From assembly GCA_964513145.1 (NCBI GenBank), contig CAZELK010000010.1:1-14521 (forward strand): DNA of 14,521 nucleotides, given 5' to 3'. The notes under the pieces were generated by a model. The model was given only the letters and a program-made list of their open reading frames with translations, had not been told where the DNA came from and searched no databases. How positions within the stretch are numbered: the first letter of the stretch is position 1; every line of letters begins with the position of its first letter. The stretch comes from Candidatus Woesearchaeota archaeon (GTDB taxonomy: Archaea; Nanobdellota; Nanobdellia; SCGC-AAA011-G17; JACPIM01). Below are positions 4,109-13,301 of the stretch, one piece after another. The position numbers and the translations under genes are program-made.

Positions 4109-7100
4109 TTAAAGTTTTAATGATGTTACTTTAGACATACCATTTTTTTGCATTGATATGCCATAAACCTGTTCTGCTTCACAAATTACAGAATCATTAT
4201 GCGATATTAATATATATTGGGCTTTTTTTGAATATTTAGATACTAATTTAGACAATAACAGGGAATTTTCTTTATCCAAGGCAGCGTCAATTTCATCCAT
4301 AAGATAAAAACTAGCTGGTTTAAATTCCTGTATTGCGAATATGAATGCCAGGGCAGTTAATGTTTTTTCACCGCCACTTAAACTTTTTATATCCAAAAAC
4401 TTATTGTTAGCTAGCTTTACTTTTATATCTAAGCCAGCATTTAATGGATTTTCCTTGTCTTCCAGTTCTAAAAATGCCTCTCCTTTTTCAGAAAGGCTTA
4501 AAAAAATACTTCTGAAATTCTCTTCAACAACATTGAATGTTTTCATAAATATGCCCTGCTTTTTACCTTCTATTTCATACATTAATTTTAGAATGTCTTC
4601 TTTTTCTACTTTTATTACTTCAGATTTTTCAATTAATTTTTTGTATTCTGTTTCTATTGTTTCATAAACTTCCAAGGCCCTTAAATTTACATTTCCAATA
4701 GTTTTAATTTCCTTTTCAAATTCATGTATTTCTGATTTTAATTCTTCGGGTGTTACTGATCTTCTTATTTTTGCATCATTAAACTGCTCAAATTCCTTTG
4801 ATATAGCTTCGAATTCAGCAACTATTTTAGCCCTTTTTAAAGACAATTCATTTAATCTTGATTCTATTTCTTTTACCTTGAATTCTTCATTTGATATACT
4901 GCCTTCATTTTTCTGGATATCTTCATTAAATAAATTTCTCTTTGCGAATAAAGACTTATATTCAGAAAAGAATTCTTTTTCCTGCTTTTCTTTTTCTTTA
5001 AGCAATCTTGAATTTGTTTCTATAAACTCTTTTAATTTTATCAGTTCTTCTGAGAATAAATGTATTTCTTTTTCATGATCTTTTATTATTTTTTCTATTT
5101 TCTCTCTCTCTGGCGTGTATATTGTATTAACCTGGCTTATGAAATTTTTTAATTCAGTTTCATTTTTTGCTATCTGTATTTTTATTTCTTCTTTTGTTTT
5201 TTCAAAATCAGTTAACTTGCTTAGAACTTCAGGGTTTCTTATTTCCTTTTCTTTGTCTTTTATTTTGTCTCTTTTTGATTTTATTGAATCCAAATCTTTT
5301 TGCAGATTATTTATCAAGCCATCTATTTCTTTAAGACTATTAGTCAATTTCCTTTGCTCCTCAGCAAGTTTTGTTTTATCTTCCCTTAATTTATTTATAT
5401 CGCTTATCTGGTATGTCTTTTCAAACTTAATTATTTCTGCTTCGTATTCTGCTTTTCTTTCTTTTAATTTTGTGACTGCTTCTTCCAATTCTATTTTCCT
5501 GTCTTCTAGCGAGCTTATCTCTGACTTAAAAGAAGAAGTTTCTTTTTCAAATTTTAAGATTTCATCATCATATTGTTTTTCCTTAAATACTGTAAATTTC
5601 TTTGCCCTATAACCGCCGACTATAGCACCAGACTGCTCAAATAAGTCACCTTCTAAAGTGACCATCCTAGCTTTTCCAACACCAAGCCTTCTTGCAGAAT
5701 CTACATCTTCCAAAACAAGAGTGTCTGTAAAAACATAAGAAAAAACATTTTTAAATTCCGGAGAGTGATGTATAAGATTAATTGCCAAACCATGAACTCC
5801 TTTTTGATTTAGTAATTTCTTTACTTCATCTCGTGGAGGCTTGCCTGATATTTTATTTAGGGGCAAAAAAATTGCAACACCAAGCTTATTTTCTTTTAAT
5901 GTATTTATACAACTTGCAGCAACTTCATCATCTTTGACAACAATACTATGAAGCCTTGGACCAGCAGCTACTTCCAGAGCAAGTGAAAATTTTGAATCAA
6001 CTTTCCCAAGATCAGCTATTGTCCCATAAACCCCTTTTAGCTTCATTGACAATATTTTTTTTATAGATAAATTGCCTGACAATGATTCTTTAATTGTAAT
6101 ATCCTTTGCCTTTAATTTTATTAAATCTTCATTTGCTGCAAGTAATTTAGACCTTAATGAAGATAATTGGGAAGAAATAATTGAATTTTCCCCTAATTTC
6201 TGGTTTAATTCTTTTGTGATCTCCTTATATTTCTCCCTTAAATCTTTTATCTCTTTTTTATTATCAACAATTAAGATATTATTAAGACGGCTTAGCTCTG
6301 ACTCTACCCTTTCTTTGCTTAAAGATAGTGATCCTTTCTCTTCTTTCTTTTTTAATAAATTATTTTGTGTTTCCTCTATTTCTTTATCTACTGACTCTAA
6401 ATTAAAATCTTCCAATAAATCGTGATTTTTCTTAAACTTGTTAATCTCTTCTTTTAATGATTCTTCTTTTTTTACCAAGACTGAATTCTTTTCTTCAATT
6501 GATTTTTTCTCTTTTAACAGATGCTCTATTTTTTGTTTTAAATCCTCGTTATTTTGCCTTAACTGAATAATTCTTTCTTTAATCTTTTTTAATTCTGACT
6601 CATAATTATCAACTTTTGTTTTATCCTTAACCAAGGATGTTTTTAATTGCTCTATTTCTTTTTGAATTTGTATCTGCTCTTTTTCGCCTTTTTCTTCTAT
6701 TTTAAAATTTAATTCTTTTAATTCTTCTTTCTTATTTTTTATATTTGCCTTTAATTCATCTATTTTTGAATTAATTTTATTTATCTGTTCTTGAGATGAA
6801 TTGACTTTATCTTCTACTTCTTTTTTCTTTGCTTCCCTATCTTTGATTTCAAAATTTAATAAAGTCGCTTTATTGTCCCTTAATTTTTCTTCTAATTCCT
6901 TAAATTTTAATGCCTGGTCTCTGTCTTTTTTTAGTTCTCTTAAATGCGCTTCTCTTTCTGTTAAGATAATAGTTGCCTCATTAATTTTTGTCTCAACTTT
7001 ACCTAGTTCAAGCAATGCTTTTTGTTTTCTATCTTCGTAAACTGATATGCCTGAAGCATCCTCGATTATTTTTCTTCTATCTTCTGGCTTCATTTCAGCC

Positions 7101-7549
7101 ATTGAGATTATATCGCCCTGGTTGACAATATTATGCCCACCAGGATCTATTTTTGCTGCCCTAATTAATTCCAAAACCTGCTGTCTTGTTCTTTTTTCAT
7201 CATTTATTCTGTAAATACTCTGACCATTCTGTCTTACATATCTGGATAGTTTTACTTCATCAGAGTCTATTGGAAATTCCCTTTTTTCATTATCAAAAAA
7301 AATACTTACTTCAGCTTCTTTCATTGGCGCTGATGTTTTTCCGCCATTAAAAATTAAATTTGATGATTTTTCTGCTCTTATTGACTTTGCAGACAATTCA
7401 CCAAGAACAAAAATAACTGATTCATTTATATTACTTTTACCACTTCCATTAGCCCCAATAACACAATTAAAGCCATTACCAAATTCCAGCTCTGTTGGGC
7501 TAGCAAATGACTTAAAACCCTTTAATCTTAGTTTCTTTATTATAGTCAT
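4109..7549 (-). CDS. smc: Chromosome segregation protein SMC
   Basis: 1146 aa. N-terminal GFKSF, Walker A GANGSGKS, long coiled coils, a central hinge (GVYGTIADLG...LPLNKI...VTLEGDLFEQSGAIVGG), signature LSGGEK, Walker B/D-loop FYLMDEIDAALD and H-loop ISHN. Confidence 0.97.
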   Translation of the reverse strand: MTIIKKLRLKGFKSFASPTELEFGNGFNCVIGANGSGKSNINESVIFVLGELSAKSIRAEKSSNLIFNGGKTSAPMKEAEVSIFFDNEKREFPIDSDEVKLSRYVRQNGQSIYRINDEKRTRQQVLELIRAAKIDPGGHNIVNQGDIISMAEMKPEDRRKIIEDASGISVYEDRKQKALLELGKVETKINEATIILTEREAHLRELKKDRDQALKFKELEEKLRDNKATLLNFEIKDREAKKKEVEDKVNSSQEQINKINSKIDELKANIKNKKEELKELNFKIEEKGEKEQIQIQKEIEQLKTSLVKDKTKVDNYESELKKIKERIIQLRQNNEDLKQKIEHLLKEKKSIEEKNSVLVKKEESLKEEINKFKKNHDLLEDFNLESVDKEIEETQNNLLKKKEEKGSLSLSKERVESELSRLNNILIVDNKKEIKDLREKYKEITKELNQKLGENSIISSQLSSLRSKLLAANEDLIKLKAKDITIKESLSGNLSIKKILSMKLKGVYGTIADLGKVDSKFSLALEVAAGPRLHSIVVKDDEVAASCINTLKENKLGVAIFLPLNKISGKPPRDEVKKLLNQKGVHGLAINLIHHSPEFKNVFSYVFTDTLVLEDVDSARRLGVGKARMVTLEGDLFEQSGAIVGGYRAKKFTVFKEKQYDDEILKFEKETSSFKSEISSLEDRKIELEEAVTKLKERKAEYEAEIIKFEKTYQISDINKLREDKTKLAEEQRKLTNSLKEIDGLINNLQKDLDSIKSKRDKIKDKEKEIRNPEVLSKLTDFEKTKEEIKIQIAKNETELKNFISQVNTIYTPEREKIEKIIKDHEKEIHLFSEELIKLKEFIETNSRLLKEKEKQEKEFFSEYKSLFAKRNLFNEDIQKNEGSISNEEFKVKEIESRLNELSLKRAKIVAEFEAISKEFEQFNDAKIRRSVTPEELKSEIHEFEKEIKTIGNVNLRALEVYETIETEYKKLIEKSEVIKVEKEDILKLMYEIEGKKQGIFMKTFNVVEENFRSIFLSLSEKGEAFLELEDKENPLNAGLDIKVKLANNKFLDIKSLSGGEKTLTALAFIFAIQEFKPASFYLMDEIDAALDKENSLLLSKLVSKYSKKAQYILISHNDSVICEAEQVYGISMQKNGMSKVTSLKL

Positions 7550-7620: not shown

Positions 7621-8303
7621 TTAGAAATCTTCTAATTTTTTTTGTTTTTTCTCAGCTATTAAATTTTTATACGTTGACCATGATTTCCTTATTATTTCTG
7701 GGTATTTTTCGTGATTTTCTCTTAGGAATTTTTGACAAACTGGGTTAGATGGATATCCGCTACCAATCGATTCTCCAACTAATTTTTCGATTTTCTCAAC
7801 TTCTTCTTCTCTTCTAGATTTTGCAAGAATTGAGGCAGCAGCTACTTCAATAAATTTCAGTTCTGTTTTGTGATCTAAAATTATTTCTGGTTTATGAATT
7901 AATTTTCTTAATAAGAATTTTTTAAAAGCCGGAATATTTGGACTTGGACAGTCAATAACAACTTTATCTGGTTTTAATTCGTTTATTATTTCAGCTTGCT
8001 TTATTGCTTCAAGCCAATTTAAATTTAAACCATCTCCCCCACCAACAGATCTATCAATCTCTATTGGTTGAACAATAATAACCTTATATGATTTTGCTAT
8101 TTCTTTTATTTCTTTAGCTAACTTGTGAATTTTTTTAATTGCTAATAATTTAGAATCTGTTACTCCTAATCTTTTTAATTTAATTAAATCCTTTTCTTCA
8201 AACATAGCTCCAGCTACTATCAGAGGACCGATGATTGGACCTTTCGGTTTATTAATTAAATGACTAATAATCTACCGGCTTCATCGATACCCAAAGTAAA
8301 CAT
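7621..8303 (-). CDS. rnhB: Ribonuclease HII, interrupted by a predicted 29-nt BHB intron (exon 1: 8303-8272; exon 2: 8242-7621; spliced product 217 aa)
   Basis: The ATG at 8303 reads MFTLGIDEAGR. After the insertion the sequence continues GPIIGPLIVAGA into the 194-aa track ORF (GVTDSK, VVIDCPS, VAAASILAK, GSGYPS). Joining gives the canonical GIDEAGRGPxxGPLxVAG motif. TTAATATA lies 30 nt upstream of 8303. Confidence 0.9.
8243..8271 (-). other. Predicted bulge-helix-bulge (tRNA-type) intron, 29 nt
   Basis: Minus strand: exon CGGU, bulge AG|A, stem UUAUUAGU, loop CAUUUA, stem AUUAAUAA, ACCG, bulge AA|A, exon GGUCCA. This gives a 4-bp central helix (CGGU/ACCG), two 3-nt bulges and an 8-bp intron stem. 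Cutting after the second nucleotide of each bulge yields AGA-GGU (Arg-Gly) in frame. Confidence 0.85.
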
Positions 8304-8325: not shown

Positions 8326-8338
8326 TATATTAATTTTT
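8326..8338 (-). promoter_or_regulatory. TATA box for rnhB (probably leaderless transcript)
   Basis: Minus strand AAAAA-TTAATATA with the first T 30 nt before the ATG at 8303. The same spacing occurs for ftsY and the antitoxin gene. Confidence 0.55.
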
Positions 8339-8342
8339 AGTT

Positions 8343-9419
8343 TTACAAATCCAGACTTTTTATTATTTCTTCCTTATCAAATTCTTTTAAATCTTTTATA
8401 TTCTGGCCAGTCCCCAAAAATAGAATTGGTTTTTTAAGAATGTATGCTGCTGACAATAAAGCACCACCTTTTTCATAAATATCTGCCTTTGTTATAATTA
8501 TGGCATCTACTTTGGCTGCTTTATTGAATTCTTCTACTTGCTGGACAATATCAGAACCAGTCATTGCATCAAGAACTAATATATTAAGGTCGGGTTTATT
8601 TACACGTATAATTTTTTTAAGTTCATTTAACAAATCCTGATTATTATGCAAACGACCAGCGGTATCTGCTAAAACAACATCATAATTTTTTGCTTTTGCA
8701 GAATTTATTGCATCAAATATTACTGAACAACTATCCCCACCAAAGTTACCTTTTATGACTGGGACTTCTATTTTTTTTGAATATTCTACTAATTGTGATG
8801 ATCCTGCAGCCCTAAACGTGTCTGCTGCAGCTAATATGACTTTATACTTTTCTTCCTTTAAGAAGTTGGCGAGCTTTGCGATAGTCAAGCTTTTTCCAAC
8901 ACCATTATAACCCAAAATTAAAATTATAAATGGCTGTTTCTTGCTCTCTTTTATTAGATCCGACAAATTTATTTTTTCCATAGACAATATGTCTTCAAGT
9001 GCTTTTTTTAAAGAAGTGATAATTATTTTTGATATTTCATTTCTTTTTATTGGAATGTCAACCAAATCCTTTTGTAGTTCTCTCTTTATTCTCTCTACAA
9101 CTTCCTGAGCAACATTACTTTCAAGCAAAACCAATTCAATTTCCAAGAATAATTCATTAAATTTTTCTAAAGTAATTTTTTTTAATGTTACTTTTTCCCG
9201 GAGTTTTTCAAAAATAGATTTTTTTGGTTCTTCTTCTATTTCTTCAGTGATTTCTTCTTCAACCTTTTCTTTTTTATATGCTTTTATTTCTTTTATTTCT
9301 GCAGGTTCTTCTGCTTTTTTATGCTCAATTTTTTCTATAGGCTTCTCTACTTCAGTTTCTGCCTTTTTTGTTACGCTTGATATTACATCTTTTAATTTAT
9401 CTTTTAAAAATTTAAACAT
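8343..9419 (-). CDS. ftsY: Signal recognition particle receptor FtsY
   Basis: The track ORF opens at TTG 9440; the likely start is the ATG at 9419 (MFKFLKDKLK). It has an acidic N-region, G1 GYNGVGKS, DTFRAA, DTAGR, TKAD and KGGALLS, which are SRP-GTPase motifs, and no C-terminal M domain. Confidence 0.95.
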   Translation of the reverse strand: MFKFLKDKLKDVISSVTKKAETEVEKPIEKIEHKKAEEPAEIKEIKAYKKEKVEEEITEEIEEEPKKSIFEKLREKVTLKKITLEKFNELFLEIELVLLESNVAQEVVERIKRELQKDLVDIPIKRNEISKIIITSLKKALEDILSMEKINLSDLIKESKKQPFIILILGYNGVGKSLTIAKLANFLKEEKYKVILAAADTFRAAGSSQLVEYSKKIEVPVIKGNFGGDSCSVIFDAINSAKAKNYDVVLADTAGRLHNNQDLLNELKKIIRVNKPDLNILVLDAMTGSDIVQQVEEFNKAAKVDAIIITKADIYEKGGALLSAAYILKKPILFLGTGQNIKDLKEFDKEEIIKSLDL

Positions 9420-9441
9420 AAAATTAATATGATTTCGCAAG

Positions 9442-10484: not shown

Positions 10485-11426
10485 TTAAGGTATAATCTTG
10501 TTTTTTGTGTTTATTAAAGCCCATTCTACCAATAATAAGATTAAGGCTATAAACAAGAGAGAGAACGACGTATTAAATGAAATACTTTTTTTATTTAATT
10601 TTGCTATTTCATTAAAAGAATCTTTTAATTTTTCTTTTGTTTCTGTTTTAAAATAATTGCCCCCTGTTTTCAATGCTATGGTCTTTAATGTTTCCTCATC
10701 TAATTTAGCAATTACATCAGTGCCAATAAACTGGCCTCCTTCTTCAGTACCAATACCTATTGTATTTATTATGATGTTATTCTGGCGGGCATAATTTATT
10801 GCATCTGGCAATGGTATACCAATATTGCTCTGACCATCTGTTATCAAAACCATTATTTTTGACCTATCATCTTTTTCATTTATGAGCATGTTTGTTGAAG
10901 TTATTATGGCATTCCCAATGTCTGTACCGCCAATTTGAGATATGTCTAATTTTGCAATTGAAGACCTTATTTTATTAAAATCATTTTCCAAATTGCTCTC
11001 TATTAATACAACTCCTGAAAAAGATACCAGACCTACTTTTGTTTCTATTGGTATATATTCCAGAAAAGAGTATAATGTTTCTTTTGCAGCATCAATCCTA
11101 TTTGGAATCAAGTCCTGGACAAGCATGCTAGCTGATGTGTCCAAGGCAAGAACATAATCAGAATCTGTTGATTTGCCTAAATAAGTTATTGTAGCGCCAG
11201 AAACTGATAAAACAATAAATAATAATATTAACAACCTAAATACCAATAAAAAAACATTTTTCTGAATAAACTGACCTCCACTTACTCTTGAAATTGCCTC
11301 GAAATTTGCAAATTTTAAAGCCTTTTTTTTAGTTGCCTTAAAGTTTACTGAATTTGATATAATCAGAACAGGCAAGCTAAGCAAAAACCACAAATAAACT
11401 GGGTTTGTAAAACTTATCTCGACCAT
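10485..11426 (-). CDS. BatA-like von Willebrand factor A domain membrane protein
   Basis: N-terminal FTNPVYLWFLLSLP (BatA-type N-terminus), a second TM helix, MIDAS DTSAS with TDIG and ITDG, TIGIG, and a C-terminal TM helix. The start overlaps the DUF58 stop. Confidence 0.88.
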   Translation of the reverse strand: MVEISFTNPVYLWFLLSLPVLIISNSVNFKATKKKALKFANFEAISRVSGGQFIQKNVFLLVFRLLILLFIVLSVSGATITYLGKSTDSDYVLALDTSASMLVQDLIPNRIDAAKETLYSFLEYIPIETKVGLVSFSGVVLIESNLENDFNKIRSSIAKLDISQIGGTDIGNAIITSTNMLINEKDDRSKIMVLITDGQSNIGIPLPDAINYARQNNIIINTIGIGTEEGGQFIGTDVIAKLDEETLKTIALKTGGNYFKTETKEKLKDSFNEIAKLNKKSISFNTSFSLLFIALILLLVEWALINTKNKIIP

Positions 11427-12307
11427 TTCTGCCTCTTTTTAAAAAAATTTAATACTGGGATAAGGAACTGCTGATTTGTATCTAATTTTAGAAATGATGC
11501 TCTTGAGCCTGAAAATGCAGTTTCAATATAATTTTCCTGTTTTTCTGAAAACAGCCTATATTTTTCTCTTATTAATGGACTTGGGTCGAGAATTATTTGT
11601 TCATCTGTAAACGGGTCTGCTATTAAAACCATATCTGAATCTTCTGGTATTTCCCTATCCCTCGGGTCTCTTACCATAACACCAATTATATCCAATTTGT
11701 AGGCAGCTTTTTTCAGCTGATCCTGCCAATTGCCTTTTAAACCAATAAAATCCGAAACAATAATAAGAATTGAGTTTTTCTTTAAAAGTCTGGCTGATTT
11801 TTCCAATGCTAATTCTAAATTGTAACTACCGCCGTAATTGTCAGGATTAATCAGGGTTTTCGATAACTGGTAGAAAATATTTTTATTAACTGCTGGCTGA
11901 ACTATATTAGATATTGTATCTGAAAATAAAGCGTAACCTACGCTGTCTCCAACATTTAAAATTGCGTAGGCAAGTGTACATACTAACTCAGCTACATATT
12001 CATTTTTTAATTTTTGTGTAGAACCAAAAACCATTGACGAGCTTACATCAATTAAAAAAAATATTTCCAGATTTCTTTCTTCAACAAACTGCTTTATCAT
12101 CGGCTTGTTTAATCTTACAGTTGTTTTCCAGTCAATTAATGAAGCATCATCTGCAGGAGTATATTCCCGAAAACTGCTAAATTCAAGTCCTTTAGATTTT
12201 ACACTTGTCCTGTATTGACCAAGGAATTTTGTGTTTACTATTCTTTTTGAAAATATTTCTAATTTTTTTATTCCCTGAGACAGATCAACATTTAATTTTC
12301 GAGTCAT
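11414..12307 (-). CDS. DUF58 family protein (MoxR-associated)
   Basis: GLEFSSFREYTPADDASLIDWK, FVEERN, LIDVSSSM and IVSDF motifs. The track ORF opens at 12331; the ATG at 12307 sits 1 nt after the moxR stop and is the likely start. Confidence 0.88.
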   Translation of the reverse strand: MTRKLNVDLSQGIKKLEIFSKRIVNTKFLGQYRTSVKSKGLEFSSFREYTPADDASLIDWKTTVRLNKPMIKQFVEERNLEIFFLIDVSSSMVFGSTQKLKNEYVAELVCTLAYAILNVGDSVGYALFSDTISNIVQPAVNKNIFYQLSKTLINPDNYGGSYNLELALEKSARLLKKNSILIIVSDFIGLKGNWQDQLKKAAYKLDIIGVMVRDPRDREIPEDSDMVLIADPFTDEQIILDPSPLIREKYRLFSEKQENYIETAFSGSRASFLKLDTNQQFLIPVLNFFKKRQKWSR

Positions 12308-12308
12308 T

Positions 12309-13301
12309 TTACGGTACCGGTATTTTAGCAAGAATTTCAGTTATTATTTCGTCCTTGTTTATTCCTTCAGCTTCTCCTTCATAATTTAAAATTATTCTAT
12401 GCCTTAAAACTTCATGAGCTATATTTTTTATATGCTGGGGTGTTACAAAATTCTCCCCATTAAGAAGTGCTTCTGCTTTGCCAGAAATATAAAGTGCCAA
12501 AGCGCCTCGCGGAGAAGAGCCAGAACTTATATATTTTCCAAAATTCAATTTATATTTGTGGGGGTTTCTTGTAGACTCAATTATATGCAAAAGATAATCC
12601 TCGACTTTCGGGCTACAATATACTGACTTAACTGTTTTTTGCAAATCCAGTATTTCTTTTGGATTAAGAATTGGTTTAATATTAAAATCCTCAAATCTGT
12701 GCAATGATATGTTTGTTTTTAAAATAAGCCTTTCTTCCTCTATTGTTGGGTATTTTATTATTAATTTAAATAAAAATCTGTCAATCTGGGCTGCAGGAAG
12801 ATTATATACTCCTTCGCTTTCCAATGGATTTGAACTAGCCATTACAAAAAAAGGCAGGTCCAACTTGTAAGTTTCACGACCTATTGTTACCTGCCTTTCC
12901 TGCATTGCTTCCAATAATGCTGACTGGACTTTTGGTGCAGCCCTGTTTATTTCATCTGCAATTATAAAATTTGCAAAAATCGGACCCTTAACTGTATAGA
13001 ATTCTTTTGTTTTTTCATTATAAGCAGTTATACCAGTAATATCTGCTGGCAATAAATCAGCTAAAAATTGTATTCTTTTTGATGTGCATCCAGTTACAGC
13101 TGCAAATGTCCTGATTAAAAGTGTTTTTGCCAGACCAGGAAGACCTTCTACAAGTATATGGCCATCGCATAAAACCCCCCTTAACAGACTCTCTACAATC
13201 TTGTGCTGACCAACAACAATTTTTGCTATTTCTGTTTTTACTTTATTTAGTTTTTCCTGATGAAGCTTCACCTCTTCTAATGTTAATGCTGACATAATCA
13301 C
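12309..13301 (-). CDS. moxR: MoxR-family AAA+ ATPase
   Basis: VVGQ, GHILVEGLPGLAKT (Walker A), RIQFLADLLPADITG, GPIFANFIIADEINRA (Walker B), QSALLEAMQERQVTI, NPLESEGVYNLPAAQIDRF, SPRG and LRHRI. Alternative start at 13295. Confidence 0.95.
   Translation of the reverse strand: MIMSALTLEEVKLHQEKLNKVKTEIAKIVVGQHKIVESLLRGVLCDGHILVEGLPGLAKTLLIRTFAAVTGCTSKRIQFLADLLPADITGITAYNEKTKEFYTVKGPIFANFIIADEINRAAPKVQSALLEAMQERQVTIGRETYKLDLPFFVMASSNPLESEGVYNLPAAQIDRFLFKLIIKYPTIEEERLILKTNISLHRFEDFNIKPILNPKEILDLQKTVKSVYCSPKVEDYLLHIIESTRNPHKYKLNFGKYISSGSSPRGALALYISGKAEALLNGENFVTPQHIKNIAHEVLRHRIILNYEGEAEGINKDEIITEILAKIPVP

Follow-up and report, generated by a model that had tools for sequence, protein, structure and literature searches.

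We report that the 29 nucleotides at positions 8243-8271 (minus strand) of a 14,521-nt stretch of archaeal DNA, called the window below, are very probably a bulge-helix-bulge (BHB) intron in the pre-mRNA of the genome's only RNase HII gene, rnhB, from which they would be spliced out. A preliminary description of the window had offered the core of this reading, a BHB intron at DEAGR|GP whose excision by the rule of the archaeal splicing endonuclease EndA restores RNase HII. It is upheld here by compensatory change in the helices, by the cut sites, by selection on the gene, and by the presence of EndA and the ligase RtcB. That cutting and ligation occur in the cell, and which enzymes are responsible, we infer from the comparison of genomes.

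The interrupted gene

The source organism is a groundwater archaeon, Woesearchaeota-like and a member of the DPANN, and its genome (labelled G000) is a draft MAG whose 18 contigs total 0.98 Mb, with a completeness of 98.8% and a G+C content of about 30%. On the minus strand of the window, the ATG at 8303-8301 is followed by the codons TTT ACT TTG GGT ATC GAT GAA GCC GGT AGA, so that the frame reads MFTLGIDEAGR and then runs through TTA TTA GTC ATT TAA (LLVI-stop). The remainder of the gene, GPIIGPLIVAGAMFEE... (GPIIGP..., 206 aa), starts at 8241 on the same strand in a frame that differs from that of the ATG. In an unspliced reading the catalytic Asp-Glu pair sits on a 15-aa peptide, and the longest conventional open reading frame (7621..8205, 194 aa) is without it.

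Exon 2 matches the Pfam family RNase_HII (PF01351) with an E-value of 1.3e-31 over profile positions 9-198 in the window search; the gene is single-copy, a genome-wide search for the family finding one match, which starts at profile position 8. Exon 1 supplies GIDEAGR, and intact relatives read contiguously M..(G)IDEAGRGP. A full-length RNase_HII domain, including the N-terminal DEAGRG motif, is obtained only after the predicted splice.

Table 1. Features of the rnhB locus and of the predicted intron (window positions)
Feature	Positions	Strand	Description and basis
rnhB exon 1	8272..8303	-	MFTLGIDEAG plus AG of the Arg codon; carries the catalytic Asp-Glu; sequence
rnhB 29-nt BHB intron (predicted)	8243..8271	-	base 3 of the 5' bulge, 22-nt hairpin, ACCG, bases 1-2 of the 3' bulge
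rnhB exon 2	7621..8242	-	A8242 completes AGA; then GPIIGP..., 206 aa; stop 7623-7621; Pfam
Exon-exon helix, 5' strand AUCGAUGA	8281..8288	-	Ile-Asp-Glu codons; pairs with 8227-8234 in the MFE structure
Central helix, exon strand CGGU	8274..8277	-	third base of the Ala codon and the whole Gly codon; pairs with 8245-8248
5' bulge AGA	8271..8273	-	predicted cut 8272/8271; Arg or Lys in 37/37 with the 2|3 cut alone
Intron hairpin (h')	8249..8270	-	8270-8263 with 8256-8249, 8 bp including one G.U; 6-nt loop 8262-8257
Central helix, intron strand ACCG	8245..8248	-	4/4 paired in 31/37 loci, 3/4 in 6/37
3' bulge AAA	8242..8244	-	predicted cut 8243/8242; third base A in 36 loci, G in 1
Exon-exon helix, 3' strand UCAUCGGU	8227..8234	-	Ile-Ile-Gly codons; pairs with 8281-8288
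TATA-box-like element TTAATATA	8326..8333	-	some 25 nt ahead of ATG 8303, within the spacer behind ftsY; read from sequence

Structure of the motif

According to the proposed mechanism, the transcript would fold so that CGGU, formed by the last base of the Ala codon and the Gly codon, pairs with ACCG, which lies towards the insert's 3' end. This 4-bp helix would be closed on the inside by the 8-bp intron hairpin and on the outside by an exon-exon helix (GAUGA, from Asp-Glu, with UCAUC, from Ile-Ile). EndA would then cleave behind the second base of each bulge, and RtcB would ligate ...GGU AG to A GGU CCA..., giving DEAGRGP and a 217-aa enzyme. The layout of two 3-nt bulges on opposite strands with 4 bp between them is present here and in all 37 intron-bearing loci described below. 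Cutting after base 2 of both bulges removes 8271-8243, exactly 29 nt, and joins AG to A as AGA; the predicted spliced junction is ...GCCGGTAG|AGGTCCA....

Much of this had been set out in the preliminary description. Its reading of the frame from ATG 8303 through MFTLGIDEAGR to a stop, with resumption 29 nt on in another frame, is exact, coordinates included. The sequence and the list of open reading frames agree with its statement that the Asp/Glu pair is stranded on a 15-aa peptide and missing from the 194-aa frame, and both the anatomy it gave (a 4-bp helix, two opposite 3-nt bulges, an 8-bp intron stem) and the AGRGP junction of a 217-aa RNase HII agree with the sequence.

The stability of the fold is unremarkable. 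For the 71-nt fold we find z = -1.72, with 9 of 200 shuffles equally stable, and the strict BHB register (-12.8 kcal/mol) is about 3 kcal/mol worse than the minimum-free-energy structure (-15.8 kcal/mol), which lies in a slipped register. Thus, stability by itself does not mark out the rnhB site, whose non-chance status rests on the 37-genome comparison. We take the 4-bp register to be the right one, since it is conserved across loci whereas the energetically favoured slipped register is not.

On the exon side, no more than one C-G pair adjoins the 3' bulge, and the 8-bp exon-exon helix is separated from the BHB core by a 3/7-nt internal loop. The motif is therefore somewhat relaxed on the exon side, with a nearly canonical core. 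One-unit (alpha4) endonucleases, the type predicted for this genome, have classically been described as strict (PMC5829648), and this relaxation counts against our reading.

Inserts at the same codon in related genomes

Exon 2 was searched in 60 relatives, and an intact homologue then in 240 genomes of the window's order; in each retrieved locus the gene start was read to call insert or no insert. From an alignment of 26 intron-bearing sequences (A1) we built a covariance model (R1) and applied it to 151 high-quality genomes, sampled evenly from the phylum and all belonging to one class. The long matches of R1 (61-75 nt) proved in 17 of 17 cases to be inserts at the same codon, and the 36-nt matches that were read (13 loci) are all uninterrupted genes. 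To this even sample the window's order contributes 26 genomes, 10 of them with the insert, and other orders 125, of which 7 have it. Altogether we examined 37 intron-bearing and 36 intact rnhB genes; the former come from 30 genomes of the window's order and 7 from other orders of the class. Insert lengths range from 21 to 39 nt across the 37 loci, 12 being multiples of three, and in all loci except one (36/37) the exon-1 frame meets a stop within the insert. An alignment of rnhB from relatives for intron presence and stem covariation, the comparison to which the preliminary description had looked, has thus yielded 37 same-site inserts whose helices covary.

As to an assembly or sequencing artefact, the genome is a draft in 18 contigs; nothing more specific speaks for that explanation. 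An identical 156-nt region that includes the 29-nt insert is present in two independent Logan per-run assemblies (SRR12113424 and SRR12113422), which bears out the expectation that the 29 nt are genomic, and in 36 other genomes the site is occupied by inserts that differ from this one. We give an artefact practically no credence. A scan of metagenome contigs for the source-genome junction with a gap of 0-30 nt, spliced or unspliced, returned no match, which we count against the intron reading.

It is also conceivable that rnhB is dead or decaying, inactivated by a random 29-nt insertion. As annotated, the gene does look so: Asp-Glu lies in a 15-aa peptide, and the 194-aa frame is without the pair. 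Decay is contradicted by the persistence of the interruption in 37 genomes from several orders and by the state of exon 2, whose frame is open over its full length at nearly every intron-bearing locus and which shows dN/dS of 0.04-0.16 between intron-bearing pairs, values indicating that it is under purifying selection. It is further disfavoured by the covarying helices and by rnhB being the sole copy. A dying gene is therefore a most improbable explanation.

Covariation and register of the cut

The central helix has all four pairs in 31 of the 37 loci and one mismatch in the other six, which we count against the intron reading. The fully paired helices are built from 16 different combinations of exon and intron tetramers. 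For example, the outermost pair (12:56 in A1) is CG in 11 sequences, UA in 7, AU in 3, and GC and GU in 1 each, and the innermost pair (15:53) is CG in 8, UA in 7, GC in 5, and AU and UG in 3 each; all four intron-stem pairs adjoining the BHB core also vary on both sides. Those exon bases that vary occupy the wobble positions of the Ala and Gly codons; the intron thus follows synonymous change in the exon. In A1 as a whole, 92.3% of the cells are paired, compared with 74.1% after shuffling (0 of 500 shuffles attain the real figure) and 23-48% in controls with the partners slid by 1-3 columns. The covariation score behaves likewise: 0.503 observed, 0.155 in shuffles (again 0 of 500), and 0.03-0.11 in the slid controls.

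The register of the cut was assessed by joining both bulges at every possible register in each of the 37 loci. A cut after base 2 gives a junction codon for Arg in 35 loci and for Lys in 2, that is, Arg or Lys in 37 of 37, and this is unique to that register; the same position in intact genes holds Arg or Lys in 36 of 36. A cut after base 3, which amounts to plain read-through on the 5' side, gives Ser (AGT or AGC) in 8 loci, and cuts after base 0 or 1 give Ile, Leu or stops, so that every other register produces Ser, Ile, Leu or a stop in 8-14 loci. In the 3' bulge, bases 1 and 2 vary among AA, AG, AU, UA, UG and UU. For the cbf5 introns, the published rule places the cut between the second and third bulge bases (PMC2738675).

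These data also bear on whether the interruption might be bypassed in translation, by a programmed ribosomal hop of the T4 gene 60 type or by frameshifting. There is a superficial likeness to gene 60, in that a stop falls four codons past the Arg codon and the gap contains a hairpin. Ribosomal hopping requires matched take-off and landing codons. Here only a minority of loci have such a match, the triplet before exon 2 being AGA in 8 of 37 loci and otherwise AAA (14), ATA (7), TAA (3), TGA (3), TTA (1) or AAG (1). The varying gap length of 21-39 nt argues against bypass as well, as does a covariation that fits BHB geometry precisely, including a helix built on exon bases; and eight loci obtain Arg rather than Ser only if RNA is joined. 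We consider a translational bypass very unlikely.

Splicing machinery and other introns in the genome

The preliminary description had made the presence of endA and rtcB a point to check, and both are encoded. The single EndA gene (188 aa, with the Pfam N and C domains; match at G000:C7:33779-34039; gene at L001:1474-2040, minus strand) has as its nearest solved structure the homotetrameric enzyme of M. jannaschii (1a79, 1.5e-34), with which the motifs of the catalytic region align; RtcB lies on contig C6. ARAGORN finds only 15 tRNA genes in the whole genome, 9 of them with introns, despite the completeness of 98.8%. With so few found in a near-complete genome, most tRNA genes are presumably too fragmented by introns for detection. 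Judging by these tRNA genes and by the further mRNA introns described next, the genome makes heavy use of the splicing machinery.

Counting that of rnhB, the source genome appears to have at least five mRNA introns of this kind, spread over four core genes. The suspicion that other apparently frameshifted genes might hide similar introns was correct, the further cases being rtcB (two introns), cbf5 and EF-2. The first rtcB intron is a 33-nt BHB element (GGGG/UUU ... CCCU/AUA; G000:C6:75441-75473, L003:1574-1606) with an in-frame TAG, and its removal restores HWGYGFPIGG. The second is an 11-nt bulge-helix-loop, GAGG/AAA-UUAA-CCUU/AGU (G000:C6:75543-75553, L003:1676-1686), which, removed by the BHB rule, yields GGIGFDINC as in uninterrupted relatives; plain deletion of the 11 nt was rejected, since it gives Val where the BHB rule gives the Ile of the intact relatives. 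Both rtcB introns recur in relatives (G002, G013, G007). An intein-like insert follows the second, starting CLHPESKVL after VGFDIN/IGFDIN. Since rtcB is itself interrupted, supply of the ligase would need pre-existing ligase, a circularity that we count against the rnhB reading.

The cbf5 gene contains a 19-nt BHB intron (G000:C3:20387-20405, plus strand; CCUU/AGC ... GAGG/AUA) that, read from the sequence, splits the catalytic Asp codon of GHSGTLDPGVTG at GHSGTL|D. This is the classic crenarchaeal site, now in a DPANN genome. In EF-2, a 38-nt BHB intron lies between SAHID and HGK (G000:C1, minus strand, ~214066-214103), with a central helix AUUG/CAAG containing one A.G mismatch and with a long intron hairpin. 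Right behind HGK, the EF-2 frame goes on with CVHPNSRLSL, a sequence resembling the beginning of an intein.

A genome-wide scan for BHB motifs combined with open reading frames, as envisaged in the preliminary description, gave 5861 raw and 136 filtered candidates and is not a census: it recovered rnhB, but its thresholds missed the real introns of rtcB, cbf5 and EF-2. The remaining candidates look mostly like chance matches at gene junctions. A candidate in the TyrRS gene (C3:8266-8355) was discarded, as it merely spans the gene's own start.

Distribution and history

Roughly two in three genomes sampled from the order have no insert, nor does most of the class. We mapped intron presence onto an RNase HII gene tree of 72 rows, obtained by a quick search and enriched for intron-bearing genes. 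Presence requires 25 changes on this tree, compared with 24.3 for shuffled labels, with at least 7 forced, and it shows no clustering. Because the tree is poorly resolved and its rows are so enriched, it cannot decide between an ancient origin followed by many losses and repeated transfer, and favours neither.

The window's genus contains one genome with the rnhB intron (G001, locus L009) and one without (G002, locus L006). Between the two, rnhB is 80-95% identical downstream of roughly codon 10 of exon 2, and the first codons, the intron and the upstream flank are unrelated. Since the similarity is confined to the part downstream of that codon, the gene start looks to have been exchanged by recombination, the intron coming or going along with it. 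Many introns, across families and even orders, start with GAAU... and end with ...AUUC, which suggests common descent.

The exons themselves may contribute to the choice of site. In intron-bearing loci 88.9% of the cells of the exon-exon helix are paired. Pairing of the Asp-Glu with the Val/Ile-Ile codons averages 6.3 of 8 where the gene is intact and 7.1 of 8 where it bears the intron, a difference with a nominal p = 0.006 that ignores kinship. The 3' strand of this helix is mostly GUC AUC in intron-bearing genes, in genomes that are AT-rich. A native hairpin between the Asp-Glu and Val-Ile codons may thus make the site hospitable to an intron.

It has to be asked whether a real intron doubles as a checkpoint by which the cell couples RNase HII output to its splicing capacity, the regulatory switch raised in the preliminary description. 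If the intron is real, production of RNase HII must depend on EndA and RtcB, and other core genes (rtcB, cbf5, EF-2) are interrupted too. Against a checkpoint stand the lack of the intron in some two thirds of the order's sampled genomes and in most of the class, differences between close relatives, even inside one genus, and intron loops that are not conserved; nothing suggests a sensor. We regard a checkpoint as improbable, and the proposal of a switch finds no support here. Rather than a purpose-built device, the rnhB intron looks like a passenger that is tolerated, inherited and now and then exchanged.

A broader account can be formulated, to which we would give an even chance. In it, rnhB would be one visible case of routine EndA/RtcB splicing of mRNA in DPANN archaea with a one-unit endonuclease; DEAGR|GP would either have held introns since very early times or be a hot spot to which they keep returning because of the helix that the mRNA's Asp-Glu and Val-Ile codons form; and introns would spread and vanish through recombination that swaps 5' ends.

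A further feature was seen at some gene starts. In five intron-bearing relatives (L009, L012, L042, L043, L045) an open frame upstream, with a winged-helix motif at its end (...WWKLTxKGK; Pfam HTH_45 at 1.3e-7 in L012), continues in frame into exon 1. This frame can be read over about 155-160 aa in L009:2153-2632 (-) and L012:1797-2261 (-), and the flanks of L042, L043 and L045 end inside it. Among intact genes, 0 of the 36 examined have such an extension.

Comparison with known systems

BHB introns in cbf5 pre-mRNA have been described from the Crenarchaeota (Desulfurococcales and Sulfolobales; Watanabe 2002, Yoshinari 2006, Yokobori 2009, PMC2738675). They share with the rnhB introns a short BHB or BHB-like motif within coding sequence, at the codon of a catalytic residue, and the 2|3 cut. 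Both are patchy, and the distribution of the cbf5 introns (PMC2738675) shows gains and losses. The two differ in gene and lineage, rnhB being interrupted here in Woesearchaeota-like DPANN archaea and cbf5 there in Crenarchaeota. Moreover, cbf5 introns have mostly relaxed motifs, linked to hetero-oligomeric EndA, whereas the rnhB core is nearly canonical and accompanied by a single one-unit EndA. Splicing of cbf5 was demonstrated by cDNA, while that of rnhB is deduced from comparison.

Outside tRNA and rRNA, another mRNA substrate of the archaeal splicing endonuclease is HVO_1309 of Haloferax volcanii (Schwarz et al. 2020, PMC7714728). Its BHB intron was shown experimentally, in a single species, and lies in the 5' UTR, unlike the rnhB intron, which is within the reading frame. 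The hBHBh' motif of archaeal tRNA introns (Marck and Grosjean 2003, as cited in PMC2738675 and PMC5829648) resembles the rnhB intron in its 3-nt bulges, 4-bp helix, size range and presumed enzymes; in rnhB, by contrast, the host is an mRNA, and the outer helix consists of codons (Asp-Glu with Val/Ile-Ile) beyond an internal loop. In eukaryotes, HAC1/XBP1 mRNA undergoes IRE1/RtcB-dependent splicing (background cited in the references of PMC5829648, and PMC8718801). That system likewise involves a non-spliceosomal, protein-catalysed cutting and ligation of a coding mRNA, with a change of frame and RtcB as ligase, but its endonuclease is IRE1, with another recognition motif and stress regulation, where EndA and a BHB are predicted for rnhB.

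In the literature searched up to 2025 (reviews and primary papers), cbf5 is the sole archaeal case of a BHB intron in coding sequence, and HVO_1309 the case in a 5' UTR. No rnhB intron is reported in the searchable literature, in line with the preliminary description, which knew of no such case; the one searched paper that mentions both RNase HII and bulge-helix-bulge leaves the terms unconnected. With a second host gene and dozens of genomes, protein-catalysed mRNA splicing would be more than a crenarchaeal oddity, and the proposed tie between pre-mRNA introns and hetero-oligomeric endonucleases is weakened. Gene callers systematically truncate or split genes of this kind, as with a 194-aa 'RNase HII' devoid of Asp-Glu, and inferences about metabolism and completeness in DPANN are therefore biased. 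The short transcript and the 188-aa enzyme provide a clean substrate on which to probe how strict a one-unit EndA is.

Other features of the window

An ftsY homologue ends at 8343 (minus strand), and a 39-nt AT-rich spacer separates it from ATG 8303. Any role of the TATA-box-like TTAATATA in this spacer is conjectural. The rnhB gene is flanked by genes for SMC (4109-7549) and FtsY (8343-9440). ARAGORN and Rfam scans of the window gave no match. Further along, positions 10485-13301 (-) hold an ordinary trio of MoxR AAA ATPase, DUF58 and VWA/BatA genes.
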